DNA from: Pirellula staleyi DSM 6068
GTDB taxonomy: Bacteria > Planctomycetota > Planctomycetia > Pirellulales > Pirellulaceae
Assembly (NCBI GenBank): GCA_000025185.1
Contig: CP001848.1
Location: 1,680,001-1,712,000 of the forward strand
DNA length: 32,000 nt
Direction: 5' to 3'
The notes under the pieces were generated by a model. It did not search any database and was not told the DNA's origin. It saw only the letters and a list, made by a program, of their open reading frames with translations. Position numbers and translations under genes: made by a program. Within the stretch, counting starts at the first letter, position 1. The number at the start of each line of letters is the position of its first letter. Positions 10,801 through 31,349 of this stretch are shown piece by piece.

Positions 10801-13800
10801 TGAGTGTGCCACTGACGATGATGTCGTCGTCGGCAGCGCCGGTATCGGTCACCGCGAGGTTCACCGCGCCGGCGGCATTGATGCTCGTGACGGTCATCGT
10901 GCCGGTCGCCGAGGTGATGTCGACGAGACCGTTGTTGGTCGTGATGCTTGTGAGCGTGATGGCGCTCGCTTCATCGATGTCGATCGCGCCGGTGCCAGTG
11001 ACGCTGGCGGTGAGCGTAGCGATGCTCGTATCGAGATCGATCCCGCTAGCGCTCGTCGCGCTCAGGTTACTCGCCGACACATTGAGCACACCTGCGTTCG
11101 CATCCGTAATCGCCCCCGTCGTCGCCACCAGCGTCGCATCGCCTACGGCCGTGATGGTGGTGACGGCGATGTCGCCACTGGCAGCAGTGAGTGTGATGTT
11201 GCCATTCACGGTCGTTGCGGACGAGACTGCGAGGCCGCTGGTCTCGTTGATGTTGATGTTGCCATTGGTTGCGCCGGTCGTGGAAACGATCAGCGACGTG
11301 ATGGTGGTGTCGAGATCGATGGCGTTTGCCACACCGGTGGCAGCCTGCGCGACCAGCAGACCGGTCGCGACGTTTACACTCGCGCCGTTGCCGTCGGAGA
11401 TCGAGCCGGTGAGCGCGGTGAGGGTCACAGCAAGTCCGGCGGTGATCGTGTTGTTCACGCTGATCGAACCACCTGAGGTCAAGCTGATCGCACCACCAGC
11501 GCCAACCATCAGCGGACCATCCACTTCGATCGTATCGGCCCCCACTCCCGTATCAATCGTGATGTTCGCATTCGCATGCGCATTGGCACCACTCGTGATG
11601 GTGACGCTGTCGGCAGCATCGGAGCCACCCGTCACGGTGTTGATCTCGACAGCGATATTGCCCGAGAGATGAACTTGCTCGAACGCCACGCCGCCGCTGT
11701 TGCCACTCACAACGAGGGCTGGAATTGCGGAGGTGGCGACCGTTGCGCCAAAGCCAGCGCTGATGTCGATCGTGTCGGCAGCGCCACCGAAGTTGACGAC
11801 GGCGCTAGCCAGATTAAACATGTTCACCGGCTCGAGACCACGGAACGTGATCGTCCCGGCGAGGGCATCGGAGGTGATCGTTCCGGCGCGGGCAATCACG
11901 GCGTCGCTGGTGTACGTTGCCGTCTGCAATCCGGTGCCGACAATCGCCAGCACATCGCCAAACGAGGGATTGCCGCCAGCTGCAACCGGCGAGCCCTGCC
12001 CTTCACCGTCGTAGTAAATCCCTCCGGGGAGCGCGACGTTGATGGCGTTGAGATTGACGTTCAGTGTGTCGTCGGAATCACCGCCGTAGAACGTGAAGGC
12101 GTTGGGTGGTGTCGTCGTCGTGTAACCACCAATCACCGCGCCATTGTTGAGCGAGTAAGTGACGGTGATGTTCCCCGCCCCATCGGCAGCTGTGACCGTC
12201 ACGATATCAGCACCCGCAGTGCCGTTAATGATCGGCTGTGAATAGAGCGCAACATCGTTCCCCGCACCTGGCCCCGCGCTATCGGCGCTGTAGCTGATGT
12301 AGAACGTGCTTCCACCCACCACCACTGCCGCTCCTTCGGCCAGCCCCGCAAACGTCCCCACCACCGCATCCGTCCCATCATTGGTGATGAGGATGATTTC
12401 CTGCAGCGTTAAAGCGTTGGGTGTGAATCCGCCGAGGAGGGAAACGTTCAGCGTAGCGCCACCAAGATTGATGGTGCCGGTGGTGTTGAGTTGATCGTGA
12501 GTGTTCGCGCCACCATCGCCGGGTGTGAGGCCGCCGATTTCGAAGCTGTATACATTGCCAGCCGAACCGACGATGTTGCCGGTGGCGAGCGTTCCGGTGG
12601 TACTGGTGCCAGTCCCTGCAGCGACGAGGCTCGCGCCAGTTCCCGAGAGTGCGCCGACCACGCTACCAGTGCCCGAGAGAGTGGCCGCAGCAGCGACATT
12701 CACCGAGGAATTAAGAGTTCCGAGGACGCGAAGTTCGCCTGTGCTGACGCTCGTCGAGCCTGCGGAGTTGCCGGCGCCGGTGAGATCGAAGCGTCCCGCG
12801 CCACTCTTGGTGAGTGCGCCGACCACTACCACATTGCCAGAGTTGGAGATGAGTCCCGCTGCTGTGACGGCGAAGTTCGAGCCGATGTTCGTCGAGCCGA
12901 GGTTGATGATGCCGCCGCTGGTGAGCGAGGCTGTTGTGGTGGTCGAGAGCAACGCCGAGGAGACGATGGTGTTGGCCGCCGTGACGCTCACCGAACCAGC
13001 CGTGGTGTTTTGGCTGAAGGTGACATCGTCGCCAGAGGCGATGACGATCGAGCCAGGCGCGCGGCTGTTGCCGACTTGTCCGTTAAAGTTCACGTCTCCC
13101 ACACCAGCGGTGATGGTGAGTGGTAGATCGGGGTTGTATTCGAGGATAAATCGGGTCGCTGCACCATTATTGATGGTGAGGTCGTTCCAGCCACCTGCGC
13201 CGATGATTTCCGCGTAATCTTCATCGCCCGACTGGTTCGGTTCGCCCGAATTCCAGTTCGTATAGAAGCCGTTCTGCGCTGTGCCGCCGGCGGTACCGAT
13301 CCAGAAAATGCTTCCTGCTTCAGGGCCATCCATCCAACGCCATGTACTTTCGGTTTGCAGATCCGAGGCACCAATCCAAGCGCGTCCACCACCGAGGGTC
13401 GCGGTGATGGCGGCGTTTTCAGCAGGCGAGGTGATGTTGGCGAGATAGCCACCAGCAGCGAGTGCCGCTGCGCGAGCAGCGGTCCAGGTGATCGGGCCAC
13501 CGGTGTTCACATTCACGTGGTTGCTGGCGATTTGATTCACTGCGCCGCCGAAGGTGACAGCAGCACCCACAGCGCCATTGGCGGTGGTGTTGATGTTGAC
13601 GGCACCAGCGAGACGAACGCCACCGCTAAAGTTGATGGCAGCCCCTTCGGTGGTGTTGCCCCGCGCGACGGTGGTTTCACCGCTGGCGGTAAACGTTTGG
13701 GTGCCGGTGGTATCGACTCCCACCAGGCTGATGTTGCTGCCGGCAAAGTTCACACTCGACAAACGATAGATCGAGCCCATTACGTTGGCGGCCGAGATCG

Positions 13801-16800
13801 TACCCGCACCAGCGTTGACGCTCAGCGACTGTGGCGAAGCGGCATTGAACTCGACGATATAGTTGCGTGTCGAGGTGATGTTCAAATCGTTCCAGCCACC
13901 CGTGCCGAATTGGAATTCGGCCCCATCTTCGTCGCCCGATTGATTCGGCTCGCCAGTGTTCCAGTTGGCGTAGTTGCCACCCACGGTCGATCCACCAACG
14001 GCGCCACTCCAGAACTGCACGTTGTTATCGGGACCATCGGCCCAGCGCCAGGCCCCTTCGACAGCGGTGTCATTTGCACCAATCCAAGCCGTTCCCGAGC
14101 CGATGGCGTTGATGCGGGAATTCTCGACAGCCGATCGAATCGAAGCGAGGTGCCCGGTAGTTCCCAGGAAGCTGAGCGAGGTGGCGGCAGTACGAGCGTT
14201 GCTCCAAGTCAGCGCCGAGGCGACGATCTGATAATGGCTCATCGTGTCCACGGTGCCGCCGAACACCACATTACCGCCCGCGGTGTTGATCGTGGTTCCG
14301 CTGAGGACGTTGAGAGGTCCGCTGAACGTCACCGCGCCGCCGCTGGTGGTGTGGGTGGCGCGAGTGATGATCGAGTTCGTCGAGGCAAACGTTTGTGCGC
14401 CGGTCGTGGTGACGTCGTCGACCACGATCAGCGGAGCATTCATCGAAACCGATGTCAGAACTGCGCCGCTACCGATGTTGCCACCGACAATCACCGAGCT
14501 TCTTCCATTGGCGGTCAGGGTGCGAGCCCCGCCGCTGCTGTCGATCGTCGACGCAAACTGCAAATCGTCGCCACTTACGGTGACGTTCGTCGCCAAACTA
14601 ACGGTCGAGTTGACTGTCAGGTCCGAAATTGTGGCGACATTGCCACCAAAGCTCGTGCTCGCCGCGCTGATCGTCACGTTGTTGAGCGGCTGATTATTGT
14701 CGCCGACTCCCGCGCCAAACGTCACGTTGCTGCTGCCAGTGCTAATCGTCAAGTCGGCTGCAAACAGGCTGCTGCCGTACTCGATGATATAGGCGTTCGA
14801 CGAACCGACCCCCAGGTCGTTCCAAGTGCCGTTGGCGATCATCGTCGCCGCATCTTCATCGGGCGAGTTGTTCGGTTCACCGGTGCCGTTCCAGTTGGCA
14901 TAGTTGCCACCCACCGTCACGCCGCCCGAGCCACTCCCTGTCCCTTGCCAGAACTGCACCCCTGCGTCAGGGCCGTCGGCCCAACGCCAAGCACCTTCCA
15001 CCAAGACGTCGTTGGCGCCGATCCAAACAGTGGAGGTTCCACCAATCGAGCGGACATAAGCGTTTTCAGCAGCCGAACGAATGTTGACGAGATAGCCGCT
15101 CATTCCATCGAGCGTCGAAGCGAGCGCTAGTGCGCGAGCGTTTGTCCAGTTTTGACCAGCGCCGACAAACACATAGCCCTTCAGCGCGCGAACGTTGCCG
15201 GTGAAGCTCACCGAGCCATCGGTCCCTGCCAGCGAGTCGGTATCGAGCACCAGGCTTTCACCAATTCTCGCATCGCCGTTGATGGCAATCGAACCGGCAT
15301 TGGTACCCAGATCGGTGCTAATGTTGGCCGAGATTTCCGTGCGCTCGGCATTGATCGTCAGGTTGCCGGTGTTGGCAGCGTTGCCGAGTCCCAGTGCGCC
15401 GGTGATCCGCACGATATCGCTCGCGCCGTCGCCGTTGATCGTGACAGCCGACCGCAGATCGGAGCCAGGAGCAACCGTCAGCACTCCAGCATCGGCCCCC
15501 ATGTTGATGGTGAGCTGCTGAGTCGGAACGCTAAACGTGGTGACTTCGAAGGTCGGAGTTCCGTTTTGACTCCGCAGACGGATGAGCCCGTCCCCAAGCA
15601 GTCCGTTATCTTCCAAGATCGCTTGGTCGCTGGTCCCCGGGAGATTGAAAATGGCGATCGCTGGCGAGGCATCGAAATCGGTGAGGACCGGTTCGAGGCC
15701 GGTGTAAGTGATCAGCGTGCCGTCGATGCTGATCGAGCCATCGGTGGCGTTCACATAGTTGTAGGTGACAGTGTTCGGGTTTCCGCCGAGCACTTCCAAA
15801 TCGTCGCCATCGACACCTTGTGTGTTGCCATGGACGGTGATGGGAAGAGCGAAGATCCCGCCCGATGCGGTGTAGTCGATCACGAAGTCGTCGTCGCCAC
15901 CTTGGCCACTGATTTCCAGCGACGAGAGTTGCGACAGCGGAGTGTTGATCGTCAGCACGTTATCGATGAAGACTTGCAGATTGCCGCCACTGGTTTGAAC
16001 GCGGAAATCCTGGTCCAAATTGGTGCCGACCACGGTCGGAGTTTGATCGTAGGCGAGCGTCACGCTATTCGCGCCGTAGGTCAGCTGCATCGGCGCGCCG
16101 TTGATCACGACGAGCCCACTGGTGGGATAGTTGGCGAAAGTGCCACTGATGCCGCCAGCTGCCGAGACAAGCGTTAAGGTGTCGCCTGGGACAGGAACAT
16201 AGCTTCCGGACAGCTGCAGGGTTGCGCCACTCAGAGCGATCGCGCCGCTGCTGCTGAGCGCGTCGTAGCTCCCCGCAGTGTTGCCGCTGATCACCAGTTC
16301 GACGATGCCAGTGGAGCTAAGCGCGGCACTCCCAACCGACAGCGTTCCGGTGGGATTGCCGGGGGCCACGGTCGAAAGCGCTGCTGCGGCAACCGCACCT
16401 GCAATGGTGCCGGTCCCTTCGAGTCGCGCGCCGCTGGCAACGGTGACGTCGGTGGCAGCTGCTCCATCGACGAGCGAGCCATTCACGCGCAGCGTCCCTT
16501 GCGAAACCGTCGTGACGCCGCTGAAGTTGCTGCTGCCACCCAGCGTCAGCACGCCGGTCCCTTGCTTCGTGAGGAAGTTGTTCCCCAAGAGCGAAATCGA
16601 GAGAGCGGCCGGATCGATCACACGCCGACCAAACGGATTGGTGCCATCGAGCTGCTGCCAGAAGGCCTGCACTCCCGAACCGCCATTCCCTTCGTAGTAC
16701 GTGATTTCGATATCGTGCACACCGGCGGTCAAGACGATATCGCCTGTGCGTGTCGTCATCCCTTGCGAGAAGTTGTTGTCGACAACCTGCGTGCCATTGA

Positions 16801-19800
16801 TGAAGAGCTTGCTACCGTCGTCGCTGCGGGTGCCGAAGCGGTACGTCGCATTTTCGGGAACGGTGATTTTTCCGACCCAGCGGCCACCGATGTTGTCCGC
16901 TCCAACATTCACGCCAACGCCTGCATAGACGTTGCCGTTGCTGCCGCCGCGCTCGATCGTGCCACCGAGTCCCGAGGTAATCTCCGTGCCGATACCGAAG
17001 TCGACAAAGCGGGTGAACTTGGTGGTGGGAAGCAGCGTGACGAGCTGATTGGGAAGCGCCACGGTGCCGGGCGAATTGAGCAGCGTGGTGGCCGAGCTGG
17101 GGAATGCGGGGGCGATCGAAGCGGCGTTGAAATACTGGCCGCGCAGACCACCGGGAACAAACGTTCCGGGCGTCGCGATGTCGTTGAGCAGCACGCTCGA
17201 AGGGATGATCTGCCGCGCGAACGACTGACTGCCAGCGCTCAATTGCCAGCTCGCTTGGATACCACCATTGCCACCACTGTCGAACGCTGCGATCAGGATG
17301 TCGTAATCACCCGGGGTGAGATAAATGGTGCCGCTGCGGTTAGTCATCCCTTGCGCGAAGTTGTTATTCACCACTTCGCGACCATTGATGAAGAGCTTGC
17401 TTCCATCGTCGCTGCGGGTGGTGAATTGATAGTGGCCAGCCACCGTAATGCGGATCCGACCTTCCCAGTAGGCCGCCATGTCGTTGCCGACATTCACCCC
17501 AATGCCACCAAAGAAATTGCCGCTGCTGTCACCACGATCCAGGATCGAGCCATTGCCTGGAATGGTTTCTGTTCCACCACCGAAGTCGATCGTGGGGGTC
17601 AGGTAGTTGGCAACGGTGGGGATGTAGGACTGTAAGTTGATCGGCGTCGAAGCGACGTTGATCGGATTGAGGAACGTCGTAGCGCCGCCAGCACCAAGCG
17701 CGTAGTACTCGCCACGGAGACCCCCTTGCACATTGGCTGAGCTGCCGAGTCCCGTCACGTTGCCGGTGACGGTGGTGTTGCCACTTCCCGAGACGCGAAG
17801 ACCCGAGAGTCCGACATCCATGCTGCCGATCGTCAGGCTCGTCCCATCGTTATGAATTCCCATCGTGCCACGATCGACGATCGCAGCCTTCACAGCGCCA
17901 GGGAGCGAAGTGCTTCCCGAGAGAATCACCAGTCCGGTGTTGCCCGCTGCGGCGACATTGCCGAGCGTGATATCTTCCCCAGCGCCAAAGGTCAGATTCC
18001 CTTGCAGCGCCAGCGTTGCGCCGTCACTCACGTAGGTGTCGCTCGTCGTGGTGCCGAGCGCGGCACTCGTTGTGGCCACGAGCGTTCCCCCTGTCACACG
18101 TGTCGGTCCGCTATAGCTCGAGCCGGTGCCAGTGAGGGTGAGCGTTCCGGTGCCATGCTTCGAGAGACCACCATCGATCGTGCGCAAACTGGTCGCGCCA
18201 CCACCGGCGGTTTCGCTCGGCGAGGTGTAGAGCAGGCCATCGACGGTGCTGGTGCCACTGTCGCTGATACCAAAACCAAAGGTCAATCCGAAGTTATTGG
18301 CAGGCACGGCACCACCGTCGCCACCACCATCGCCGAAGCGGATTTCGATGTTGTGCCAGCCGTCCCCGTTGGGGCCCATGCCAAGGTTCAAGCGACCGGT
18401 GCCGGTAGGTGTGCCAGCGTTGGTGTCGCGCAGGTAGAGAGCGCCGTCGATCGTGATCCGGACGTTGTCGTCCATCGATTCGGCAAACGAGACGATCCCA
18501 TCGGCGTCGAAGAACTGACCGGTATAGACCCAAGTGACGTTATCGTTGAGCCAGTAGATGCCGGGGTTTCCGCCGACGCGCGACGTCGCATTGCCAGCCG
18601 GTGTGCCGAGTCGTTGCACGGTGCCAGGATTCGGGCTGGTTTCGTCGAAAGCGCCTGCGAGGAGCCCTTCGAGCAAGCCTTCCTGCTCGTAGCCCAGCAC
18701 GTTGCCGCTTACGAGAGTATTGCCGCTGCCGTCGATCTCCAGTTCAGCGCCGCCGCGAAGTGTGATATCGCTGGTGAGGTTCAGCTGCGACCCAGCATTG
18801 GTGATCATCGCCTGGCCCAGCGCGGTGATCGGACCGGCGATGGTGGAGGTGCCACTCGCGAGGCGAATTGCGCCGTTGAGGTTGTTGCCACGCCCGTTGA
18901 TCGAAAGGGCTTCCGAGGCGGGCAGATTCAAACCTGCAGCGACCAGCAGTTGGCCACCCGCTTGCACCAGCGTATCGCCGTCGCCTGAGCCGAGGGCATT
19001 GTTACTCGTGATACTGACGACACCCGCATTGATGCGCGTCAAACCGACGTAGTTATTGCCAGTTCCGGCGAGGGTGAGTGTGCCGCCACCGTTCTTGACG
19101 ATGCCACCATCGGGCGTGCGCAAGCGCGTGGCGGTTCCATCGATCGTCTCTTCGAGCTTCTGCAGATCGGCGACGTTGCCATTCACGGCCGGATTGCCAC
19201 TTTCGCTCCAGGCAAAACCGTAGGTGCTGCTCCAACCGGTGAAACCGTTGGTGCTGCCACTCGCACCAGCGCCACCACCACCGTTGCTGAAGCGGACCTC
19301 GATATCGTGCCAGCCATCGCCGTTGGGACCCATCCCCAGGTTCAGCGTGCCGGTGCTCGTAGCGACATTCCAGACGCTGTTGTCGAGTCGCACGACCCCA
19401 TCGATCACCACGTAGGTCCGGTCGTCGATCTGCTCGGCAAAGGCGACAACACCATCGGCGTCGTAGAACTGACCGTTGTAAACCCAAGTGGTAGTGCCAG
19501 CCCACGGCGCGACGGAGTTGGCAAACATCTGGCCAAAGCGGAAGCCGTTGGTGAGACCACCATAACCGGCGTAGATCGAGGTGCCGTTGTTAGCCGCGAA
19601 CGACATGTTGCCGCTTTGCGAAGCTTCAAGCAGACCCTCTTGATAGCCGCCCAGTACGTTGCCCGTGATGTTCGTGCTGCCGTTGCCCGAGACCGTGAGA
19701 GTGGCAAATCCGAGGGTGACGTTGCCACTGATGTTATGCGTACCGGCGTCGACATTGATGGTGCCGGAGGTGGCGAGCGTGAGCGGGGTACTGATGGTGT

Positions 19801-20212
19801 TGCCACCTAAATCGTCGTCGATAGCGGTCCCGCCACCAAAATTTTGGGCATCGAGGATGAGCGGATTTCCGCCGAGCGAATAGCCGGTCCCTGTGAAGCG
19901 GAGGGCGTAGCGGTTGGTCGACAGCGTGTCGTTGAACTGCGTGAAGTTGGCGGCAGCGGCCGGGAAAACGAGAACGTCGCCATCTTGCGGCAGCGTGTTG
20001 GAGTCCCAGTTGGTGTTGGTTCCCGAGATCCCCCCGTTCCAGTTGCCATCGACGTCGCCGACCCAGGTGAGAGTGGCGAGCACTTCGCGGCGCTCGAGCG
20101 TTTCGAAGAACATGCGGCGCTTGGAGGCCAGAGTCGACTTCTTCTCACGACGGTCGCGGGGATTTTTAGCGCGAAGCGAAGCTGAACGACGATCGAGTGA
20201 ACCTGAACTCAT
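7883..20212 (-). CDS. Giant (~4,100 aa) secreted/surface mosaic protein: autotransporter-associated beta-strand repeats, PA14 domains, C-type lectin-like domains, beta-helix-like stalk, RTX Ca-binding repeats
   Basis: Single uninterrupted ORF 7883..20344. Start placed at ATG 20212-20210 (GGAG 8 nt upstream), giving MSSGSLDRRS...KRRMFFETLERREVLA. Domain motifs were read directly from the translation and are listed as sub-features. I counted four K.G.G.L.L.G...Y.G.T.V..G.L beta-strand repeats. Confidence 0.9.
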   Translation of the reverse strand: MSSGSLDRRSASLRAKNPRDRREKKSTLASKRRMFFETLERREVLATLTWVGDVDGNWNGGISGTNTNWDSNTLPQDGDVLVFPAAAANFTQFNDTLSTNRYALRFTGTGYSLGGNPLILDAQNFGGGTAIDDDLGGNTISTPLTLATSGTINVDAGTHNISGNVTLGFATLTVSGNGSTNITGNVLGGYQEGLLEASQSGNMSFAANNGTSIYAGYGGLTNGFRFGQMFANSVAPWAGTTTWVYNGQFYDADGVVAFAEQIDDRTYVVIDGVVRLDNSVWNVATSTGTLNLGMGPNGDGWHDIEVRFSNGGGGAGASGSTNGFTGWSSTYGFAWSESGNPAVNGNVADLQKLEETIDGTATRLRTPDGGIVKNGGGTLTLAGTGNNYVGLTRINAGVVSITSNNALGSGDGDTLVQAGGQLLVAAGLNLPASEALSINGRGNNLNGAIRLASGTSTIAGPITALGQAMITNAGSQLNLTSDITLRGGAELEIDGSGNTLVSGNVLGYEQEGLLEGLLAGAFDETSPNPGTVQRLGTPAGNATSRVGGNPGIYWLNDNVTWVYTGQFFDADGIVSFAESMDDNVRITIDGALYLRDTNAGTPTGTGRLNLGMGPNGDGWHNIEIRFGDGGGDGGAVPANNFGLTFGFGISDSGTSTVDGLLYTSPSETAGGGATSLRTIDGGLSKHGTGTLTLTGTGSSYSGPTRVTGGTLVATTSAALGTTTSDTYVSDGATLALQGNLTFGAGEDITLGNVAAAGNTGLVILSGSTSLPGAVKAAIVDRGTMGIHNDGTSLTIGSMDVGLSGLRVSGSGNTTVTGNVTGLGSSANVQGGLRGEYYALGAGGATTFLNPINVASTPINLQSYIPTVANYLTPTIDFGGGTETIPGNGSILDRGDSSGNFFGGIGVNVGNDMAAYWEGRIRITVAGHYQFTTRSDDGSKLFINGREVVNNNFAQGMTNRSGTIYLTPGDYDILIAAFDSGGNGGIQASWQLSAGSQSFARQIIPSSVLLNDIATPGTFVPGGLRGQYFNAASIAPAFPSSATTLLNSPGTVALPNQLVTLLPTTKFTRFVDFGIGTEITSGLGGTIERGGSNGNVYAGVGVNVGADNIGGRWVGKITVPENATYRFGTRSDDGSKLFINGTQVVDNNFSQGMTTRTGDIVLTAGVHDIEITYYEGNGGSGVQAFWQQLDGTNPFGRRVIDPAALSISLLGNNFLTKQGTGVLTLGGSSNFSGVTTVSQGTLRVNGSLVDGAAATDVTVASGARLEGTGTIAGAVAAAALSTVAPGNPTGTLSVGSAALSSTGIVELVISGNTAGSYDALSSSGAIALSGATLQLSGSYVPVPGDTLTLVSAAGGISGTFANYPTSGLVVINGAPMQLTYGANSVTLAYDQTPTVVGTNLDQDFRVQTSGGNLQVFIDNVLTINTPLSQLSSLEISGQGGDDDFVIDYTASGGIFALPITVHGNTQGVDGDDLEVLGGNPNTVTYNYVNATDGSISIDGTLITYTGLEPVLTDFDASPAIAIFNLPGTSDQAILEDNGLLGDGLIRLRSQNGTPTFEVTTFSVPTQQLTINMGADAGVLTVAPGSDLRSAVTINGDGASDIVRITGALGLGNAANTGNLTINAERTEISANISTDLGTNAGSIAINGDARIGESLVLDTDSLAGTDGSVSFTGNVRALKGYVFVGAGQNWTNARALALASTLDGMSGYLVNIRSAAENAYVRSIGGTSTVWIGANDVLVEGAWRWADGPDAGVQFWQGTGSGSGGVTVGGNYANWNGTGEPNNSPDEDAATMIANGTWNDLGVGSSNAYIIEYGSSLFAADLTISTGSSNVTFGAGVGDNNQPLNNVTISAASTSFGGNVATISDLTVNSTVSLATNVTVSGDDLQFASTIDSSGGARTLTANGRSSVIVGGNIGSGAVLTSVSMNAPLIVVDDVTTTGAQTFASTNSIITRATHTTSGGAVTFSGPLNVLSGTTINTAGGNVVFGGTVDTMSHYQIVASALTWSNARTAATSLSFLGTTGHLASIRSAVENSRINAIGSGTAWIGANDTAVEGAWRWADGPDNNVQFWSGAVGGSTVGGNYANWNTGEPNQSGDEDGAEFQFGTGGWNDLNITSTRNYIVEFNAASPQSLSVNAGAGTISAANVMGSIYRLSSVNFAGSNISLVGVDTTGTQTFTASGETTVARGNTTEGAAINFSGGVRLAGAVNINTTANGAVGAAVTFGGAVNQIASNHVNVNTGGPITWTAARAAALAAGGYLANITSPAENAAITATLGGGRAWIGASDLQTESTWRWMDGPEAGSIFWIGTAGGTAQNGFYTNWNSGEPNQSGDEDYAEIIGAGGWNDLTINNGAATRFILEYNPDLPLTITAGVGDVNFNGQVGNSRAPGSIVIASGDDVTFSQNTTAGSVSVTAANTIVSSALLSTTTTASLTSGGIINLGSTNIGSNFAVTAAGLISNSGNVVVVGALTKSGAGRFDLTGAGNSAGSTSVSTGELRVLGTLNSSVNVAAAATLSGTGSVVGALSGTGASLVAAGTGTSTTGTLATGNIVGSAGNVYSFEIGGLTPGDGGANTHDQLNTTGTINLGGATLNVSLLGGFTPNALTLQEIILITNDGTDAVVGTFAGLAEGAAVVVGGSTFYISYSADSAGPGAGNDVALYSQPIINGTAGADIVTVTAADGAGNITVTYSLNNGAVIGGYTTTTPPNAFTFYGGDSDDTLNVNLNAINVALPGGIYYDGEGQGSPVAAGGNPSFGDVLAIVGTGLQTATYTSDAVIARAGTITSDALAGTITFRGLEPVNMFNLASAVVNFGGAADTIDISAGFGATVATSAIPALVVSGNSGGVAFEQVHLSGNIAVEINTVTGGSDAADSVTITSGANAHANANITIDTGVGADTIEVDGPLMVGAGGAISLTSGGSISVNNTITAGLAVTLTALTGSISDGNGASVNVATGLLVAQAATGVANAIDLDTTITSLIVSTTGATNGNININETSGLAVSSATTVNGNITLTAASGDIAVTTITAVGDATLVATTGAITDANAGVLNVSASNLSATSASGIDLDTSIATLTASVTGTGAIDIDEASAITLTSITTNNGLVDITSATGTMTVTSINAAGAVNLAVTDTGAADDDIIVSGTLSSTSNVVLLAGDDATLSGTISATGTVSVTIDAASADVGGATLSFAGDIDAVSATFTGGAEIDTFNVRPDQDNGLASTPISIFGGDPTMPAGDLLVLDITGLGVPTLTLGAVNYSGVWSFGASAAGVAYSSIETVQTTPLTSVYNLVLDMRIAGFQNGAADAIEIFLSAPNVFEVEVNGLGKFSGQADTINSFTVIGSSDSESLTIRETAAGLPSFDGAAPLVDNSLASGGVSNGAHLNIAADAYYTASNLTDVTIHFDGGLGDNSLALELLTAADVGYFSDVLDGQGSGNVGVGPSGAPLTLVSFADLDTLILDGAGGNLVVDASSSTSTADIEISDDGAAADGVTEITADTGLVATTTFEGFLALDLIAGGGNEAIDLVNIDSTSSLTSIDIVAGSSLAATDNSAHTVRIHAIKSGVPVTVTGDIGVDTFQVFDSGNSASNIASTLSFNGVAGDDDSLIVVDSGSVSADSVVITRTTIEGLTIASGIDITFTSIDDLDVTTSGGADTIRVNMTEAANDLDTAVVTGAGDNDQFYVNAADFLARLTLNGGLGDDTFGGTPSSTAPGYLLSASELDGVDDMIRPSLTTPFFINGNDPSVLPGDVLNIDVSALGGGLAATSPVLVSSGQVLSSTHATVTFTTIEDLNLADDGEMTSATINDIYIRGTNGNDTIQFARANTTLEPSRTRVQIGSSYTYHNVPGKTLVYGRGGNDIINQSNLQIPAEFYGEAGDDFLTGSFNNDLLVGGLGNDRINASSGNNIVWGDDAPTSDELNPHELNIGGNDTLSALGGNDLFYAGGGNDSVSPGAGDDWIHGGYGNDQLSGSSGNDRIYGAQGNDTISGDVGDDFLSGGDGDDRLYGRDGNDVLIGGDGVDLVDGGNGNDLVLAAITTYQGTSDTATSNTYSSAVDAAMLALLVAWNSGGPVAPNLTHTDDLDRDTVYGGSGNDLFGTHTNADPLTSDIRGDFNNSQDTSL
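8147..8686 (-). other. RTX / hemolysin-type calcium-binding nonapeptide repeat block (domain of the giant CDS)
   Basis: GRGGNDIIN...GGLGNDRIN...GGNDTLSALGGNDLFYAGGGNDSVSPGAGDDWIHGGYGNDQLSGSSGNDRIYGAQGNDTISGDVGDDFLSGGDGDDRLYGRDGNDVLIGGDGVDLVDGGNGNDLVLA. Roughly 13-15 GGxGxDxUx-type units. One orphan unit, YGGSGNDLF, lies at 7961-7987. Confidence 0.85.
13136..13486 (-). other. C-type lectin-like domain 3 (domain of the giant CDS)
   Basis: WTAARAAALAAGGYLANITSPAENAAI...AWIGASDLQTESTWRWMDGP...YTNWNSGEPNQSGDEDYAEIIGAGGWNDLTINNGAATRFILEY. The WIGxxD, EPN and WND motifs are present and there is no Cys. Confidence 0.8.
13847..14206 (-). other. C-type lectin-like domain 2 (domain of the giant CDS)
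   Basis: WSNARTAATSLSFLGTTGHLASIRSAVENSRI...AWIGANDTAVEGAWRWADGP...YANWNTGEPNQSGDEDGAEFQFGTGGWNDLNITSTRNYIVEF. Confidence 0.8.
14777..15148 (-). other. C-type lectin-like domain 1 (domain of the giant CDS)
   Basis: WTNARALALASTLDGMSGYLVNIRSAAENAYV...VWIGANDVLVEGAWRWADGP...YANWNGTGEPNNSPDEDAATMIANGTWNDLGVGSSNAYIIEY. Confidence 0.8.
16655..17152 (-). other. PA14 domain 2 (domain of the giant CDS)
   Basis: GGLRGQYFNA...GGRWVGKITVPENATYRFGTRSDDGSKLFINGTQVVDNNFSQGMTTRTGDIVLTAGVHDIEITYYEGNGGSGVQAFWQ matches the canonical PA14 pattern. Confidence 0.85.
17243..17725 (-). other. PA14 domain 1 (domain of the giant CDS)
   Basis: GGLRGEYYALG...AAYWEGRIRITVAGHYQFTTRSDDGSKLFINGREVVNNNFAQGMTNRSGTIYLTPGDYDILIAAFDSGGNGGIQASWQ. 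Confidence 0.85.
18305..18694 (-). other. Divergent PA14-like module B (domain of the giant CDS)
   Basis: GYEQEGLLEG...VTWVYTGQFFDADGIVSFAESMDDNVRITIDGALYLRD...LNLGMGPNGDGWHNIEIRFGDGGGDGG. It has the same length and register as module A, 318 aa downstream of it. Confidence 0.5.
19259..19648 (-). other. Divergent PA14-like module A (domain of the giant CDS)
   Basis: GYQEGLLEAS...TTWVYNGQFYDADGVVAFAEQIDDRTYVVIDGVVRLDN...LNLGMGPNGDGWHDIEVRFSNGGGGAG. The layout is PA14/GLEYA-like (G.Y.F....DD....idG....), but the call is by pattern only. Confidence 0.5.
20075..20119 (-). other. N-terminal RRMFFETLERREVLA motif of the giant protein
   Basis: A basic stretch followed by F-E-x-L-E-x-R-x-x-L-A. I recall [RK]R..E.LE.R.LL[AS] as a recurrent N-terminal signature of very large planctomycetal secreted proteins. 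No classical hydrophobic Sec h-region is visible. Confidence 0.5.
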
Positions 20213-20706
20213 GAGCGAAACTCCAAGCTGCAAATTGACGGAGCGCGATCGACAGCCGCAGCGCGGTGGCTTTCCGAGGAAAGTAGCGACTGCGAAGACG
20301 ATCTCGCCGAAAATTTCCACCCCAGGAGTTCTGTTGCACTTCAAACGCTCGGATCGCGCGGCGCAGTGAGCTCGAGCCGCAGCAACGAGTGAACGGTGCT
20401 GCGGATAAGCCAGTGTTGAGCGCGAAGCATCGCCGCACGGCGGCTGGCGATACTGGAAAACGCGGAGAGTTTCGACGAAGCAGGGGTTGCTAAGTAACCT
20501 GAATTCCGTTGCGGTTACGAGGCAGGGCTACGAGCGAAAACTGACGCGAGGCGAGAGAAGTGGGAGAGGCACCTAGTGGGGGAAATTGGGGGAGGTAAGG
20601 GGAACGACTCGAGGCGATCTTGGATTCGTGGCGTGGCAGACTGCTGAGCGCAACGATCAGCGCTTCAGCATAGTTGGGGAGATCCAAAAACGCACCTTCT
20701 GACTAG

Positions 20707-25864: not shown

Positions 25865-26668
25865 TTACTTATCGAACTGCTGTTCGGGACCGGGGAACTG
25901 ACCACTCCGGACATCTTCGCGGTATGCCACCACCGCATCGGCAATCGTTTGCTGCAGATGGGCATATTGCTTGACGAAGCGCGGCACATAGCCGTGCGTG
26001 AGTCCCAGCAGATCGTGTAGCACCAGCACCTGTCCATCGCACTGATTGCCAGCGCCAATCCCGATCGTCGGGACACGGAGCTTAGAGGTGATCTCCGCCG
26101 CCAGCGGAGCCGGAATGCATTCGAGCAGTACCGAGAACGCGCCTGCCTCCTGGGCCGAGAGAGCATCGTGGATCAAACGCTCGGCATCGCGCTGCACTTT
26201 ATAGCCCCCCATGGTGTGGACACTTTGCGGGCGGAGTCCCACATGGGCCATCACCGGGATGCCAGCCGAAACCAGACCGGCAATCACGTCGGCTTGTTCG
26301 GCCCCCCCTTCGAGTTTCACAGCCTGACAGCGAGTCTCTTTGATGATCCGCGAGGCATTTTCAATCGCCCGATGCACCCCGAGCAAATTGGTCGGAAACG
26401 GCATGTCGACAATCACCAGCGCATGCTGCACAGCGCGGCCGACCATCTCGGCATGGTAGATCATTTGATCGAGCGTCACAGGCAATGTGGTGTCGTGCCC
26501 CTGCACCACCATCGACATGCTGTCGCCCACTAGAATTGCTTCGATCCCCGCGCCGTCGAGCAAGGCAGCCATCGAGTAGTCGTAGGCGGTCAGCATGCTG
26601 ATCTTGCGACCAGATGCCTTGAAGCTGACGAATTCAGGAACGGTGACGCGGGATGCTCGTTTGGCCAT
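25865..26668 (-). CDS. panB: 3-methyl-2-oxobutanoate hydroxymethyltransferase
   Basis: ORF 25865..27139 trimmed to ATG 26668-26666 (MAKRASRVTVPEF...), giving 267 aa, the typical PanB size. Motifs present: MLTAYDY, VGDSMSMVVQGHDTTLPVTLDQMIYH, DMPF, VKLEGG, HVGLRPQSV. The upstream 157 codons overlap the lnt start region and look non-coding. Confidence 0.93.
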   Translation of the reverse strand: MAKRASRVTVPEFVSFKASGRKISMLTAYDYSMAALLDGAGIEAILVGDSMSMVVQGHDTTLPVTLDQMIYHAEMVGRAVQHALVIVDMPFPTNLLGVHRAIENASRIIKETRCQAVKLEGGAEQADVIAGLVSAGIPVMAHVGLRPQSVHTMGGYKVQRDAERLIHDALSAQEAGAFSVLLECIPAPLAAEITSKLRVPTIGIGAGNQCDGQVLVLHDLLGLTHGYVPRFVKQYAHLQQTIADAVVAYREDVRSGQFPGPEQQFDK

Positions 26669-26968
26669 GTCGGAGTTCGTTGTGCGTGGGGAGAGTCGTC
26701 GCGATCCCGGCAGGCTGGGGAGCGCCACGTTGAAGTCGTGCCAGGGTCTATCATAGCTCGCGCCCTCTCGCGGATGTGATGCTCTGAAGCATTGCAGCGC
26801 TCTTTTTCTGCTACACTTTTGCCCGTTAAGAGCGCCCGTTGCAAACGCCCACTGCGAGGCAGCCACTCGAGGGTTGCCAGGAGGAGAGCTTCGCGCGGGA
26901 AAAAGTTCGCGCAGGCACTGACGGATCGCTCGATCGAGGAGCGGGGCGATGAGGGAAGTTGGGCTACC

Positions 26969-28765
26969 ATGGAGGCGGGACTGAACGTGAACAGCAGCGC
27001 GGAGCGTGAACCACGACAGCGTGCCTCGGGGCGAGCCACCGGCAGCAGCACTGTGGATAAAGGTGGCGACAAGCGTAGTGACAATAGTGGCGACAAGCAG
27101 ACGCGCGATCGCAGCGCGGTGCTTCTCGGCCACTGGCAAACGCTGCTGGTGGCGCTGCTCGGGAGTTTGCTCCTCTATCTGGCGTTTCCTCCTGCGCGGC
27201 TCGGCCTACTAGCCTGGGTGGCCCCCCTTCCCTGGCTCTGGCTTGTCGCTCAGCCGACACTCGCCGCACGTCGACCTTATCTGGCGATTTACCTCGCGTC
27301 GTGGGTCTTTTGGCTCGCGCTACTGCAAGGAATTCGTCTGGCGCATCCGGCACTGATCCTCGGCTGGATTGCACTGGCAGCTTATCTCGCCGCTTACTTG
27401 CCGCTGTTCGTGGCGATCACGCGTCAGGCGGTTCACACGTACAAGATTCCGCTGATCGTGGCCGCGCCGATAGTGTGGGTCGGACTCGAACTGGTTCGCG
27501 GCCGGATGATCAGTGGCTTCTCGCTCGGGGGACTTGCGAACTCGCAAACCGAGTGGGTCACGCTGCTGCAAATCTGCGACCTGGCCGGGGCGTATGGATT
27601 GAGCGCGCTGATGATGATCACGTCTTCGGCGATCCTCGCACTGATGCAAACCGAGCGGTCGAGACTCGCGCGGGTGATTGAGCCGGTAGTGGCGGTGGCG
27701 CTTATCGGCGGCGCGCTGCTGTATGGACAAGCCCGACTCCGCGCGCCGGAATCGGAGGAGACGATTCTTTCGGCAGCGCTCATTCAAGGTTCGCTCGACA
27801 CCGTGTTTGAAGTGAGCCCCGAGCGCGTGCGCGAGACGATCACCACCTATGCGCGACTGACCAGCGAGGCCCGCGCTTCGATCGGCGATCTCGATTTGGT
27901 GATCTGGCCCGAATCGATGTTTCCGATCCCTCGGTTTGATATCGAAGAGCCTCTGGAAGATGATCGCGAAAGTGGGCTAACGAAAGAGCAACTCCGATTG
28001 CGACTCGAGGAGATGAATCGTCAGTTCGATAGTGTGGTGCGTGATGCGGTGGCAAGTCTCAACAGCGAGGCGAATGCTTCGCGACCGACGCTGCTGCTGC
28101 TGGGGACCAACGTGATTCAGTATGGTCCAGGGCCGACGAAGATTTTTAATAGCGCCATGCTGTTCGATCCGCAGGGGACCCGGATCGCTCGCTACGACAA
28201 GATGCACCCGGTGATGTTTGGAGAGTACGTTCCGCTGACCGACCTGTTTCCGTTCCTATATGACCTGACACCGATGGCGGGTGGCTTGTCGGCGGGGGAG
28301 GGTCCGGTGATGTTCGAGGTGGGGGAGGCGAAGCTATCGCCGAGCATTTGTTTCGAGAGTACGGTCCCTCATCTGCTGCGCACGCAAACAGCGCAACTAG
28401 TTGCGCAGCGCGCGCGCCCCGATTGTCTGGTAAACATCACAAACGATGGCTGGTTCTGGGGTTCCAGCTTGCTCGACATGCACCTGCATTGCGCGGTGTT
28501 GCGCGCGGTGGAAAACCGCCGGCCGATGCTGGTAGCCGCCAACACAGGCTTCTCGGCATCGATCGATGGCCGGGGTCGGCTTTTGGAGAGAGGCCCCCGA
28601 CGTGCCGAGCGGATCATCCACGCCCAGGTGCGCCGCGAGAGTCTCACCAGTCCCTACCACACTGTGGGGGACCTCCCCGCCGTGGTTTGTGCGGCACTAG
28701 CGTGGCTGATTGCGATCTCTCAGCAGGTGGGAGAGTTCTGGCAACTGCTCAAACGCCGAAACTGA
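26969..28765 (+). CDS. lnt: Apolipoprotein N-acyltransferase
   Basis: ORF 26792..28765. First ATG taken at 26969; the start is uncertain, and an in-frame GTG at 27117 lies just before the first TM helix. Multiple N-terminal TM helices are followed by a CN-hydrolase domain with VIWPES (Glu), RYDKMHPVMFGEYVP (Lys) and SPSICFES (catalytic Cys). Confidence 0.9.
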   Translation: MEAGLNVNSSAEREPRQRASGRATGSSTVDKGGDKRSDNSGDKQTRDRSAVLLGHWQTLLVALLGSLLLYLAFPPARLGLLAWVAPLPWLWLVAQPTLAARRPYLAIYLASWVFWLALLQGIRLAHPALILGWIALAAYLAAYLPLFVAITRQAVHTYKIPLIVAAPIVWVGLELVRGRMISGFSLGGLANSQTEWVTLLQICDLAGAYGLSALMMITSSAILALMQTERSRLARVIEPVVAVALIGGALLYGQARLRAPESEETILSAALIQGSLDTVFEVSPERVRETITTYARLTSEARASIGDLDLVIWPESMFPIPRFDIEEPLEDDRESGLTKEQLRLRLEEMNRQFDSVVRDAVASLNSEANASRPTLLLLGTNVIQYGPGPTKIFNSAMLFDPQGTRIARYDKMHPVMFGEYVPLTDLFPFLYDLTPMAGGLSAGEGPVMFEVGEAKLSPSICFESTVPHLLRTQTAQLVAQRARPDCLVNITNDGWFWGSSLLDMHLHCAVLRAVENRRPMLVAANTGFSASIDGRGRLLERGPRRAERIIHAQVRRESLTSPYHTVGDLPAVVCAALAWLIAISQQVGEFWQLLKRRN

Positions 28766-29128
28766 TTGTGATGCTGGAACTGGGCCGCCGGAAATAGCAG
28801 CGGCAAACTTCGGGAAAAATGTCCGAATTCCGCTGGTAACGAACCACCCTGTCCCCGGCCATCGTAAGTTAGAGGTGGAGCGGGAAGGTTTTCTTTCCGA
28901 TTCTGGGAACTATTTCGCCGGGCGGTTCTCGCCCTGTAGCCGCCGAATTTCCCGGCTCCGTCACCGATGGGGTAGTGCCGGTTAGTTTGCTCAAGATCGC
29001 CCACTTGGCGTAGGAAAACTTGGCTCGCGAGGCAAGTTGGGGCCGTTTTCGAGATTCTTCGGAGTCTGGTTTGAACCGCACAGAACTCGACCTAAACTTC
29101 CTAGCCAACCGAATTTGAACTCGTTTCG

Positions 29129-29158
29129 TTGACTTTTCATTTCAGCGGAAATTATACT
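29129..29158 (+). promoter_or_regulatory. Near-consensus sigma70-type promoter TTGACT-18-TATACT
   Basis: TTGACT at 29129-29134, an 18-nt spacer, and TATACT at 29153-29158, in an AT-richer patch about 200 nt upstream of the 29355 CDS. Confidence 0.45.
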
Positions 29159-29354
29159 GAAGCGACACTTTTGCCTATTCTCCTCTCAAAGTGAAACGCC
29201 TGCGGACACTTTGCCGCTTGAGTGAAAGCTCGAGCTGGTAAGGATCGTTCTGCCGATTCGCGTTTCGGCTGCTTGTTAGTCTGGTGTGCGGACTGAGCGG
29301 CGGTAGAGGGCTAGTAGTGCTTCGTATACCCTTCCAACCAAGGTAGCGGTAGCC

Positions 29355-30209
29355 ATGACGCTCGTCGGGAAAATCTTCACCGTTCTGATTTTCATCATGA
29401 GCCTCGTGTTCATGTCGTTGTCGCTGATGACCTTTGCGACACATCGCAATTGGAAAGAATTTGCGACCAACGCCTCTCCAGGACCGGGGCAAAAGCTGGG
29501 GCTGATGCAGCGCCTGCAACAGGCCCAGGATCTGAACAAACAACTCACCAGCGAACGGGATCGCATCCTGTTTCAGCTGGCTCAAGAACGCGCTTCACGC
29601 AAAACAGCTCTCGCTGCCATGCAAACGCGTTTGGTCGCTGCCGAATCGGCCCTCGCTGCTCGTCAAAAAGCACTCGACGATCTGACCGCCACCCACAACA
29701 CCACGGCCGAAGCTGCTAAGACTGCGCAGGAACGCCTCACCGCCCTCGAAATGGAAGTGCAAGGCTTGCGCGATGAAGTCCGCGTCACGCAGCAAGATCT
29801 CGACAAGAAGTTCGGCGAAGTGGTCACCCTCACCGATCAGCTGAATCAATCGACCGGCCTCAAGCTTCGTCTCGAAGAACGCAACACGCAGCTCGCCCTG
29901 CAAGTCACCCGCATGAAGATGGTGATGGATGCCAAGGGTCTGACTGAAGACGCTCTCGTCTCGCACATCCCGCCGCAAGTCGAAGGTGTTGTGCTCGCCG
30001 TGAGTGACAAGGATCTGATCGAGATCTCGCTCGGAGCCGACGATGGCCTGAAGGAAGGTCACGTGATGGAAGTGTTCCGTGGCAACACCTACCTGGGACG
30101 CGTTATCATCCGCCGCACCGCTCCTGATCGAGCCGTCGCCCAGATCGTCAAGGAACTCCAGCGAGGCCAGATTAAGAAGGGCGACAATGTCTCTACCAAG
30201 CTCGGCTAG
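29355..30209 (+). CDS. Membrane-anchored coiled-coil protein with small C-terminal beta-domain (hypothetical)
   Basis: ATG 29355. N-terminal TM helix MTLVGKIFTVLIFIMSLVFMSLSLMTF, then ~170 aa of heptad-like Q/E/L/A/R-rich sequence. The C-terminal part is EGVVLAVSDKDLIEISLGADDGLKEGHVMEVFRGNTYLGRVIIRRTAPDRAVAQIV...IKKGDNV. The overall TM + coiled-coil + beta layout loosely recalls periplasmic adaptor (HlyD-like) proteins, by pattern only. Confidence 0.8.
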   Translation: MTLVGKIFTVLIFIMSLVFMSLSLMTFATHRNWKEFATNASPGPGQKLGLMQRLQQAQDLNKQLTSERDRILFQLAQERASRKTALAAMQTRLVAAESALAARQKALDDLTATHNTTAEAAKTAQERLTALEMEVQGLRDEVRVTQQDLDKKFGEVVTLTDQLNQSTGLKLRLEERNTQLALQVTRMKMVMDAKGLTEDALVSHIPPQVEGVVLAVSDKDLIEISLGADDGLKEGHVMEVFRGNTYLGRVIIRRTAPDRAVAQIVKELQRGQIKKGDNVSTKLG

Positions 30210-30381
30210 TCCTTCGTATCAGCCTACGGAAAAGCCCGAAACCAACATCTTCACGATCATGCTGTTGCTGTCGTTCGTGGCGCTGGTTACCGGCTGTGTG
30301 CTGATGCATCTCGAACTGCAACGCTTCGGTCCCGAGTATCCGTTTTGGAAAACTCCTCCGGTGCCGCAGGTCGTGCGCTAA
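30187..30381 (+). CDS. Small single-TM protein, 64 aa (paralogue 1)
   Basis: ATG 30187 sits inside the last 23 nt of the upstream CDS in a different frame, with GAAGGG 7 nt upstream. Sequence: MSLPSSASPSYQPTEKPETNIFTIMLLLSFVALVTGCVLMHLELQRFGPEYPFWKTPPVPQVVR. G/C-ending codons dominate in the TM part. It is a paralogue of the next small ORF. Confidence 0.55.
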   Translation: MSLPSSASPSYQPTEKPETNIFTIMLLLSFVALVTGCVLMHLELQRFGPEYPFWKTPPVPQVVR

Positions 30382-30458
30382 GCGTCTGCTCTCCATCGGT
30401 ACGACTCCGCTTGCTTGTTCGCGATTCGTTGTCCGCTACTTTCATCGAGACCATCGAC

Positions 30459-30635
30459 ATGGCCACTGCCAACAACGAATCGACACCAAAGACCAAGGAA
30501 CGAACGAATCCCTACACCGTGGTGCTGGGACTCACGCTGCTGGCCATCACGCTCGCCTGCATTGCACTGGTGATCGAACTACGTCAGTATGGTAACTTCC
30601 CATTCGAACTAGTGTGGAAGACCCCGAAAATCTAG
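30459..30635 (+). CDS. Small single-TM protein, 58 aa (paralogue 2)
   Basis: ATG 30459. Sequence: MATANNESTPKTKERTNPYTVVLGLTLLAITLACIALVIELRQYGNFPFELVWKTPKI. It aligns with paralogue 1 on TN.[FY]T, the single Cys in the helix, EL..[FY]G, PF and WKTP. G/C-ending codon bias is present but the SD is weak. Confidence 0.55.
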   Translation: MATANNESTPKTKERTNPYTVVLGLTLLAITLACIALVIELRQYGNFPFELVWKTPKI

Positions 30636-30677
30636 TCGGCCGGTCTGCTCTTTAAGCCCACGGAGCGGGGCACTTCT

Positions 30678-31349
30678 TTGCGGCACTACTCGCTAGCGGC
30701 ATCAGGATTCGAGTTAGTTACCGGCGCAATCGCTCGAGCCCGCTGCGCCGAGATTGCTCACTTGCTCGACGAGCGCGACAGCATTTCGCTCGGCTCGCGG
30801 CGTTTACTCGACCAGCCCTGGTGCCGCGAACTGGCCGTAGATTTGCGACGCCATCCACGCATCGCCGCGCTCATTCCAGAAGCGTGGGTTGTCGCGCAGT
30901 GCACCTTGTTCGAGAAATCGCGTGCGACCAATTGGCTCGTGCCGCTGCATCAGGACCTTAGTATTCCTGTGCGCGAGCGGGTCGAACATCCGGAACTCTC
31001 AGGCTGGTCGATCAAAGAGGAAGGCCACTTTGTACAGCCTCCCGCCGAGCTTCTTGCCATGCTGGTGGCGGTGCGATTGCATATCGACCCCTGCGACCAG
31101 CAGGATGGTCCGCTGCGCGTGGTTCCCGATTCTCATCGCGCTGGAAAGCTCTCGCCTGAAGCCTCCGCCGAGCTTCGAAATCGCTCGGGAGAAACGAGTT
31201 GCATCGCCGAGGCTGGTGATGCACTCCTGCTGCGGCCTCTCCTCCTGCATGCGTCGTCGAAAGCGACCGGCAGCAGTCAGCGGCGCGTTCTGCACTTTTT
31301 GTGGGGGCCACCAGCGCTCACGTGCGGGCTTTCTTGGCCTGCCAGCTGA
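30678..31349 (+). CDS. Phytanoyl-CoA dioxygenase (PhyH) family Fe(II)/2-oxoglutarate oxygenase
   Basis: TTG start at 30678 (GGAG 11 nt upstream; no in-frame ATG nearby). LVPLHQDLSIPV provides the H-x-D of the facial triad. HIDPCDQQDGPLRVVPDSH and LLLRPLLLHASSKA provide the distal His. 223 aa. Confidence 0.75.
   Translation: MRHYSLAASGFELVTGAIARARCAEIAHLLDERDSISLGSRRLLDQPWCRELAVDLRRHPRIAALIPEAWVVAQCTLFEKSRATNWLVPLHQDLSIPVRERVEHPELSGWSIKEEGHFVQPPAELLAMLVAVRLHIDPCDQQDGPLRVVPDSHRAGKLSPEASAELRNRSGETSCIAEAGDALLLRPLLLHASSKATGSSQRRVLHFLWGPPALTCGLSWPAS

Follow-up and report, generated by a model that had tools for sequence, protein, structure and literature searches.

A 32,000-nucleotide (nt) stretch of Pirellula staleyi DSM 6068 DNA (contig CP001848.1, positions 1,680,001 to 1,712,000 of the forward strand; hereafter the window, with coordinates counted from its first letter) carries three consecutive genes, Psta_1350, Psta_1351 and Psta_1352, which a sequence-only reading had proposed to form a membrane module of one 284-amino-acid (aa) protein and two tandem micro-proteins. 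Comparison with related loci shows that the conserved core unit is two genes, not three: the large gene, Psta_1350, and the first micro-gene, Psta_1351. As judged by profile and sequence comparison, these two are a new family pair that belongs to no described family. The features of the locus are as follows.

29129..29158, + strand: sigma-70-like promoter from a consensus scan (TTGACT, 18 nt, TATACT), about 195 nt before the large-gene ATG
29159..29354, + strand: putative, sequence-variable 5' leader from the presumed transcription start, with a Shine-Dalgarno (SD)-like AAGG before the large-gene ATG
29355..30209, + strand: large gene, encoding a predicted bitopic membrane protein of 284 aa, 100% identical to Psta_1350 of Pirellula staleyi DSM 6068
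29361..29468, + strand: predicted transmembrane (TM) helix of Psta_1350, aa 3-38, in the AlphaFold 2 (AF2) model
29502..29933, + strand: predicted single continuous helix of Psta_1350, about 144 residues, aa 50-193, same model
29982..30194, + strand: predicted six-stranded beta-barrel of Psta_1350, aa 210-280, same model
30174..30181, + strand: SD-like AAGAAGGG within the large-gene codons for K-K-G, 6-13 nt before the micro-gene start
30187..30209, + strand: 23-nt dual-coding overlap, read as the large-protein C-terminus N-V-S-T-K-L-G-stop and, in the +1 frame, as the micro-protein start M-S-L-P-S-S-A
30187..30381, + strand: micro-protein 1, Psta_1351 (64 aa, ATG start), in the +1 frame relative to the large gene; the conserved partner gene
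30459..30635, + strand: micro-protein 2, Psta_1352 (58 aa, own ATG), a tandem paralogue with no overlap and no clear SD sequence

The coordinates and frames given by the sequence-only reading were confirmed, including the placing of both micro-ORFs inside longer, mechanically called open reading frames (ORFs; 30079..30381 and 30345..30635). GenBank already holds all three genes with exactly the same starts, each as a "hypothetical protein"; the failure to recognise a family was borne out, as no Pfam or NCBIfam family scored above threshold for any of the three proteins and the sub-threshold matches were coiled-coil noise only. Codon use in both micro-ORF frames (G+C content at third codon positions, GC3, 0.66-0.68) matches the neighbouring genes, as expected from the claim that these frames use the G/C-ending codons of real genes. 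The similarity noted between the two peptides is also real. Psta_1351 and Psta_1352 share 19 of 58 residues (33%; BLASTP E-value 8e-12), and their Smith-Waterman score of 96 was reached by none of 2000 shuffles (28.9 +/- 6.9; z 9.7) that kept the composition of the N-terminal tail, the TM segment and the C-terminal tail each separately, so that their likeness is more than shared TM-helix composition.

For the comparative analysis we retrieved 86 loci around large-gene homologues (cited here, with further loci, by L number) and searched their + strand translations with a hidden Markov model built from the two P. staleyi peptides. A micro-ORF match followed the large-gene homologue in all 81 loci with at least 60 nt of sequence downstream, and in six loci lacking a match fewer than 60 nt were left past the large gene. 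The large gene, which the sequence-only reading had expected to occur only with such partners, was never found alone among the 81 testable loci. Searching from the other side, an alignment of the two peptides retrieved four proteins from the protein database, and an alignment of 71 micro-protein sequences retrieved 93, all unnamed; the nine that we looked up each have a large-gene homologue of 271-311 aa directly upstream. In L087 the large gene is broken by frameshifts. Since co-occurrence is complete in both directions (81/81 and 9/9), the large gene and the micro-gene constitute an obligate pair.

The micro-ORF is under purifying selection. Measured on the non-overlapping codons, the ratio of nonsynonymous to synonymous substitution rates (dN/dS) has a family median of about 0.39 in pairwise comparisons and is 0.14 between Psta_1351 and its closest relative, L002. 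Together with the 81 intact loci, this upholds the earlier view that the small ORFs are real, coding and conserved, and that they go with the 284-aa gene. The micro-ORFs might nevertheless be non-functional and owe their conservation to the overlap with the large gene or to a regulatory RNA element, since codons 1-7 of micro-ORF 1 also encode, in the other frame, the conserved end of the large protein and would be constrained in any case. We regard this as extremely improbable: all 81 loci keep the frame open for 50-100 codons past the overlap, the non-overlapping part by itself gives a dN/dS below 1, and the conserved motifs are amino-acid motifs that show synonymous variation. The protein is moreover kept without any overlap in L087, L088 and L090, and Rfam gave no match anywhere in 28600-30800.

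The overlapping start is itself conserved. Micro-ORF 1 had been placed 23 nt inside the upstream gene in another frame, and this is precisely where the start, ATG or GTG, lies relative to the end of the large-gene stop codon in 62 of 80 loci, with one clade at -29 to -38. An SD-like 4-mer (GAGG, AAGG, GGAG or AGGA) occurs at -16 to -4 of the micro-gene start in 64 of 71 distinct loci, within the large-protein codons for I-K-[KRE]-G-D. At the nucleotide level the overlap is highly conserved, G-D-[NR]-V-[ST]-T-K-[LF]-[SG]-stop in one frame being (M/V)-S-L-P-S-S-A in the other, and this dual coding partly explains the conserved N-terminus of the micro-protein. It is a reasonable inference from this arrangement that translation of the two genes is coupled, and the conserved start agrees with the coupling suggested earlier. 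In the distant loci L087, L088 and L090 there is no overlap, a gap of about 65 nt takes its place and the micro-protein is kept, which indicates that the overlap is derived and that the micro-protein does not depend on it. Public gene calls at several loci (among them L005 4875-4976 and L006 4902-5018) cut the micro-gene to 33-38 aa by way of an internal start, where the start at -23 gives 57-62 aa, so that overlapping members of this family are being annotated wrongly.

Psta_1351 consists of a polar N-terminal tail, one TM helix (aa ~21-43, nt 30247-30315) and the tail E-L-x-R-F-G-x-x-Y-P-F-W-K-T. The consensus of the 71 sequences is (M/V)SLPSSANQP..QKPGTN[IV]YT[VM]ML, the TM helix, and EL.[RK][FY]G.[YF]PWW.T; K16, N20, Y22, T23, M25, L26, L40, E43, L44 and W54 are invariant or nearly so. 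The most divergent members (L087-L090) have lost the FG.YPWW tail and keep KQ..N[IV]YTMML, the helix and E[LM]..Y, leaving K-x3-N-[IV]-Y-T-[VM]-M-L, the TM helix and E-[LM] as the family-wide core, which the genes of the window carry. Two features emphasised by the sequence-only reading are not family-wide. The single conserved Cys is in fact C, T, S or W and is kept only between the P. staleyi paralogues and their closest relatives, to which the WKTP tail is likewise restricted. Net charge is +1.1 on the N-terminal flank of the helix versus -0.3 on the other, and the N-tail of L088 reads KKKKAKVKK; from these charges the N-terminus is most likely inside and the conserved aromatic tail outside. 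At L053 (864-1655), L055 (1020-1853) and L057 (864-1508), the micro-protein homologue is extended at its C-terminus by about 150-220 aa of Pro-, Gly-, Ala- and Met-rich sequence with tandem PGGPAGMPMA-like repeats, and at L060 (1230-1532) there is a similar extension of about 45 aa without clear repeats.

The second micro-protein, Psta_1352 (TM aa ~19-41, nt 30513-30581), has an orthologue only in L002 and L003, the closest relatives, where the large protein is 87% identical; the orthologues share 59% identity, with a dN/dS of 0.48 against L002. Second copies elsewhere are of other kinds. Those of L031 and L059 differ from Psta_1352, are 79% identical to each other and begin VSLPS like the adjacent first copy, and L045 carries yet another. 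These unlike second copies point to at least two or three separate tandem duplications. By its distribution, Psta_1352 is a recent, lineage-specific tandem paralogue and not a feature of the family, and it is probably an alternative or redundant subunit. The proposal of a three-protein module, comprising the large protein and both micro-proteins and possibly co-transcribed and functionally linked with a PhyH oxygenase, fits the arrangement in P. staleyi and in L002/L003, where the four genes lie on one strand with short gaps and where, in the window, the + strand showed no terminator-like site past 30381 or 30635. With TTG at 30678 taken as its start codon, the PhyH-domain ORF (Pfam E-value 8e-12) does begin 42 nt past micro-ORF 2, as had been reported. 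For the family at large, however, the three-protein module is contradicted, and we give it very little credence: the second micro-protein and PhyH occur in the Pirellula lineage only, and other lineages have one micro-gene followed by unrelated genes. With PhyH behind the pair in only 3 of 35 loci, it is not part of the module.

The large protein defines an extensive family of its own. A database search returned 648 homologues, the 120 listed spanning 265-286 aa, and an exhaustive profile search with the large protein yielded 598 representatives of 50%-identity clusters at an E-value of at most 1e-30. The best 150 of these 598 are 179-306 aa long, nearly all 272-306 aa, and match end to end. 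The family signature, present in Psta_1350, comprises an N-terminal TM helix with M-x-L-V-G-K-I-F...T-H-x-N-W and a C-terminal barrel with G-[SA]-D-D-G-L-x-x-G-H; the invariant residues include G5, K6, T9, T29, H30 and W33 and the barrel motif G-x-D-D-G-L-K-x-G-H. The AF2 model was computed from a 37-sequence alignment and has a mean predicted local distance difference test score (pLDDT) of 86; the barrel predicted by itself scored 80. The coiled coil, estimated earlier at about 170 aa, comes out shorter, as the helix of about 144 residues listed above.

There is strong comparative evidence that the pair forms a self-contained operon, widespread in Planctomycetia, whose products would assemble into a two-subunit membrane complex. 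The promoter, TTGAC, 17-18 nt, TATACT, is invariant in 12 of 12 aligned upstream regions, its flanks being unalignable, and the pair therefore appears to be its own transcription unit. The leader, at about 195 nt, is long for a small membrane operon. This promoter is part of a context absent from the sequence-only reading, which also includes lnt upstream and, in divergent lineages, mreBCD-pbp2 downstream.

In the window, lnt (apolipoprotein N-acyltransferase; TIGR00546 E-value 2.6e-70) lies at 26792..28765 on the + strand, with a separate promoter, and is treated here as context rather than as an established part of the module. No other gene accompanies the pair so consistently: lnt stands immediately before it, in the same orientation, in 25 of the 33 distinct loci for which 1.5 kb or more of upstream DNA was available, the most divergent loci included. 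The pair might accordingly work with Lnt in lipoprotein or outer-membrane biogenesis, for example as an inner-membrane-anchored periplasmic tether or ruler like TolA or Lpp, with the barrel touching the outer membrane or lipoproteins; the predicted helix, at about 21 nm, would be close to the width of the periplasm. We consider this a live but unlikely alternative. An invariant promoter of its own precedes the pair, 150-600 nt past lnt, and 8 of 33 loci, those of Anatilimnocola (L001, L006) among them, have lost the linkage but kept the pair intact. Gene order conserved within one bacterial order may also reflect shared ancestry. TolA and TonB were themselves rejected as relatives, because the fold search gave ATPase-type barrels and no TolA_C or TonB_C fold and no TolQR or ExbBD neighbours occur at the examined loci; the parallel with these proteins is limited to a conserved His at the end of the large-protein TM helix (H30).

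Downstream of the pair the neighbours vary. Among the 35 loci with enough downstream DNA, the next gene is gyrA in five, PhyH in three and an unrelated gene in 23. The arrangement in a few divergent loci is of another kind. On one strand and with gaps of 50-140 nt, L090 (5388-10249) has lnt, the large gene, the micro-gene, mreB, mreC, mreD and pbp2; L087 has the pair followed by mreB, mreC and mreD; L088 (5303-8613) has lnt, the pair, mreB and pbp2; and L089 (5329-7380) has lnt, the pair, pbp2 and gyrA. In the Pirellula-like loci L004 (5220-8021), L007, L046, L051 and L091, lnt and the pair are followed directly by gyrA. With the same flanks around a shrinking insert, this looks like a stepwise loss of elongasome genes in which the pair was retained. 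In a clade whose large proteins show 45-46% identity, the micro-gene is followed, in the same orientation, by a third gene, whose product of 384-764 aa has a double CPxC zinc ribbon (DUF7129, E-value 1e-6) at its N-terminus and a Pro-rich linker (L065 4100-5572; L084 4208-5737; L092 6389-8683; L095 7308-8462; also L067-L071, L077, L083 and L085).

The mre linkage in the deep-branching loci and the MreC-like architecture of the large protein lead us to propose, tentatively and at somewhat less than even odds, that the pair acts in cell-envelope or peptidoglycan morphogenesis. In the mechanism we have in mind, Psta_1350 and Psta_1351 would be expressed, in a large group of planctomycetes, as an autonomous two-gene operon from their own sigma-70-type promoter, and coupled translation would make the large protein and the micro-protein together. 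Their TM helices would pack together as a single complex in the membrane, with contacts made by conserved polar and aromatic residues at the ends of the helices, K6, T9 and T29-H30-x-N-W33 of the large protein and N-x-Y-T and E43 of the micro-protein. The helix of about 21 nm, probably oligomerised as a coiled coil, would fix how far the beta-barrel stands from the membrane. The pair could then assist or scaffold the Rod (MreB/MreC/PBP2) system, a role that may have been kept in budding lineages without mre genes at the locus.

Several observations weigh against such a role. The mre-type linkage was found in only 4 of the 35 loci, the downstream gene varying elsewhere, and the four are divergent metagenomic loci reached through micro-protein matches. 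No sequence or profile similarity of the pair to MreC, MreD, RodZ or any envelope family was detected in Pfam, NCBIfam, the PDB profile search or hhalign. The profile search of PDB sequences gave coiled-coil noise only, and Foldseek against the PDB, with the full model or with the C-terminal domain, gave nothing at an E-value below 1e-3. The best Foldseek matches of the barrel (E-value ~3e-3) are the N-terminal barrels of F1/V1 ATPase alpha and beta subunits, and FlgT. The TM-score to the ATPase barrels is 0.54-0.60 over about 73 residues, with a root mean square deviation of about 3 A and 20-25% identity to alpha subunits. Counting for the role, in contrast, the barrel also weakly matches Listeria MreC when the full model is searched (2j5u_A; 22% identity, E-value 3.3e-3). 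The likeness to the ATPase 'crown' barrel and FlgT is that of a generic closed six-stranded barrel, the large protein having no nucleotide-binding domain, no sequence match and another genomic context. The predicted barrel fold is generic and assigns no function; the guide to function is gene neighbourhood. Finally, the net charges flanking the large-protein TM helix, +1.0 before and +0.8 after, leave its topology ambiguous by charge.

The large protein could instead sit with its N-terminus outside and with coiled coil and barrel in the cytoplasm. It would then be a membrane-anchored scaffold of the kind represented by YhcB (LapD/ZapG) or the DivIVA-type organisers, and the micro-protein would be its co-anchor. 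In YhcB/DUF1043 proteins (LapD, ZapG), which are linked to envelope synthesis, an N-terminal TM helix runs from the first residues and is followed by a coiled coil. The TM helix of Psta_1350 likewise starts at residue 3 with no cytoplasmic N-terminal domain, K+R counts are 2.2 after the helix against 1.0 before it, and the barrel finds its closest fold matches in cytoplasmic F1/V1 ATPase barrels. The nearly equal net charges, however, lend this arrangement no support, and the invariant K6 before a hydrophobic stretch of 22 residues looks like a type II signal anchor, which would put the N-terminus inside. In addition, the aromatic tail of the micro-protein, likely outside, matches the T-H-x-N-W of the large protein at the C-terminal side of its TM helix. 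We judge a cytoplasmic scaffold, likewise a live alternative, improbable and, on account of the signal-anchor look, lean weakly towards a periplasmic coiled coil and barrel. YhcB itself was rejected as a relative: there is no DUF1043 (PF06295) match, YhcB at ~130 aa is about half the length and lacks a barrel, gene order and partners differ, and the N-terminal architecture alone is alike. The pairing of a small TM protein with a larger bitopic partner is also known from LapA-LapB of E. coli.

One of the closest known systems is MreC, a rod shape-determining protein. MreC, too, is bitopic, its TM helix at the N-terminus being followed by a coiled coil and, at the C-terminus, a beta-barrel, and its gene stands beside that of a small membrane protein, MreD; in L087, L088 and L090 mreB comes immediately after the pair in the same orientation. 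MreC differs in having two tandem barrels where Psta_1350 has one (aa 210-280), the helix of Psta_1350 is much longer, and mreC sits between mreB and mreD whereas the large gene sits upstream of mreB. Psta_1350 and three homologues gave no PF04085 match at an E-value of at most 1 in Pfam/NCBIfam, and we rejected orthology with MreC; hhalign of the large-family profile against two planctomycetal MreC sequences returned a probability of 1%. MreD (PF04093) was rejected for the micro-proteins, as MreD is polytopic and they have one hydrophobic segment and no Pfam match. Since the pair coexists with a genuine MreC (PF04085) and a separate MreD-like gene in L087 and L090, the two genes are not MreC/MreD orthologues.

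RodZ, another elongasome component, is likewise bitopic in the inner membrane and ends in a small beta-rich domain. It was rejected as well, because the cytoplasmic N-terminal helix-turn-helix that binds MreB is absent from Psta_1350, which has no helix-turn-helix or DUF4115 match; a TM helix beginning at residue 3 leaves no room for a RodZ-type N-terminal domain. FtsB, FtsL and DivIC resemble the pair as small bitopic proteins with a juxtamembrane coiled coil that form obligate pairs, and differ in size and in the C-terminal barrel, with no Pfam/NCBIfam model matching. Some homologues carry Joint Genome Institute labels (FtsB, EnvC, AcrA, YlxW), which are inconsistent automatic names. Membrane-fusion proteins (HlyD/AcrA), UPF0749/YlxW, EnvC and FtsB gave no match at an E-value of at most 1, and the AF2 helix is continuous, not a hairpin.

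The morphogenetic proposal gains interest from what budding planctomycetes lack. In published surveys MreB is missing from some of them and MreC from budding planctomycetes, MreD was found in no proteome of the Planctomycetes-Verrucomicrobia-Chlamydiae (PVC) group, and RodZ has been reported absent from Planctomycetes (PMC5147048), which would leave its role unfilled. Budding planctomycetes are without FtsZ and RodZ, many are without MreC/MreD, and the remaining canonical genes are dispensable in Planctopirus (PMC6952346, PMC12288469); their divisome is described as not understood (PMC12288469). A bolder form of the proposal, for which we see only a slim chance, would make the pair a core, lineage-specific part of the FtsZ-independent morphogenesis or budding machinery of Planctomycetia, its complex having taken over peptidoglycan-synthesis scaffolding of the MreC/MreD/RodZ type. 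Such a take-over would explain why the pair was kept while mreBCD-pbp2 was lost stepwise from the locus. A literature search on the locus tags and on planctomycete coiled-coil and division proteins found no description of these genes.

With about 600 clusters at 50% identity, tight conservation, its own promoter and a position at the head of an mreBCD-pbp2 cluster in some lineages, the pair offers a testable candidate for the missing envelope machinery. The micro-gene is in addition a clean example of a conserved protein of fewer than 70 aa with a dual-coding start and presumably coupled translation, which gene callers treat inconsistently. Should the pair turn out to be a generic membrane protein system without a morphogenetic role, it would still be a well-defined new family pair for annotation. 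It is real, unnamed and widely conserved, and its interest is moderate until a phenotype or an interaction is shown.

Elsewhere in the window, the mechanical ORFs of panB (25865-27139, - strand) and lnt (26792-28765, + strand) overlap head to head by about 350 nt. HMM matches start only at aa 164 in panB and at aa 125-170 in lnt, so that both true starts should lie further in, that of lnt probably downstream of 26792, and the divergent intergenic region would be longer than the ORF list suggests. Two proteins with DUF1559 and an N-terminal methylation (prepilin-like) motif and one DUF1573 protein, of planctomycete-typical families, are encoded on the - strand at 1831-3105, 3781-4965 and 175-1647. 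A giant ORF of 4153 aa (7883-20344, - strand) contains PA14, C-type lectin, PATR and RTX calcium-binding repeats, and its product is probably a secreted or surface adhesin-like protein.

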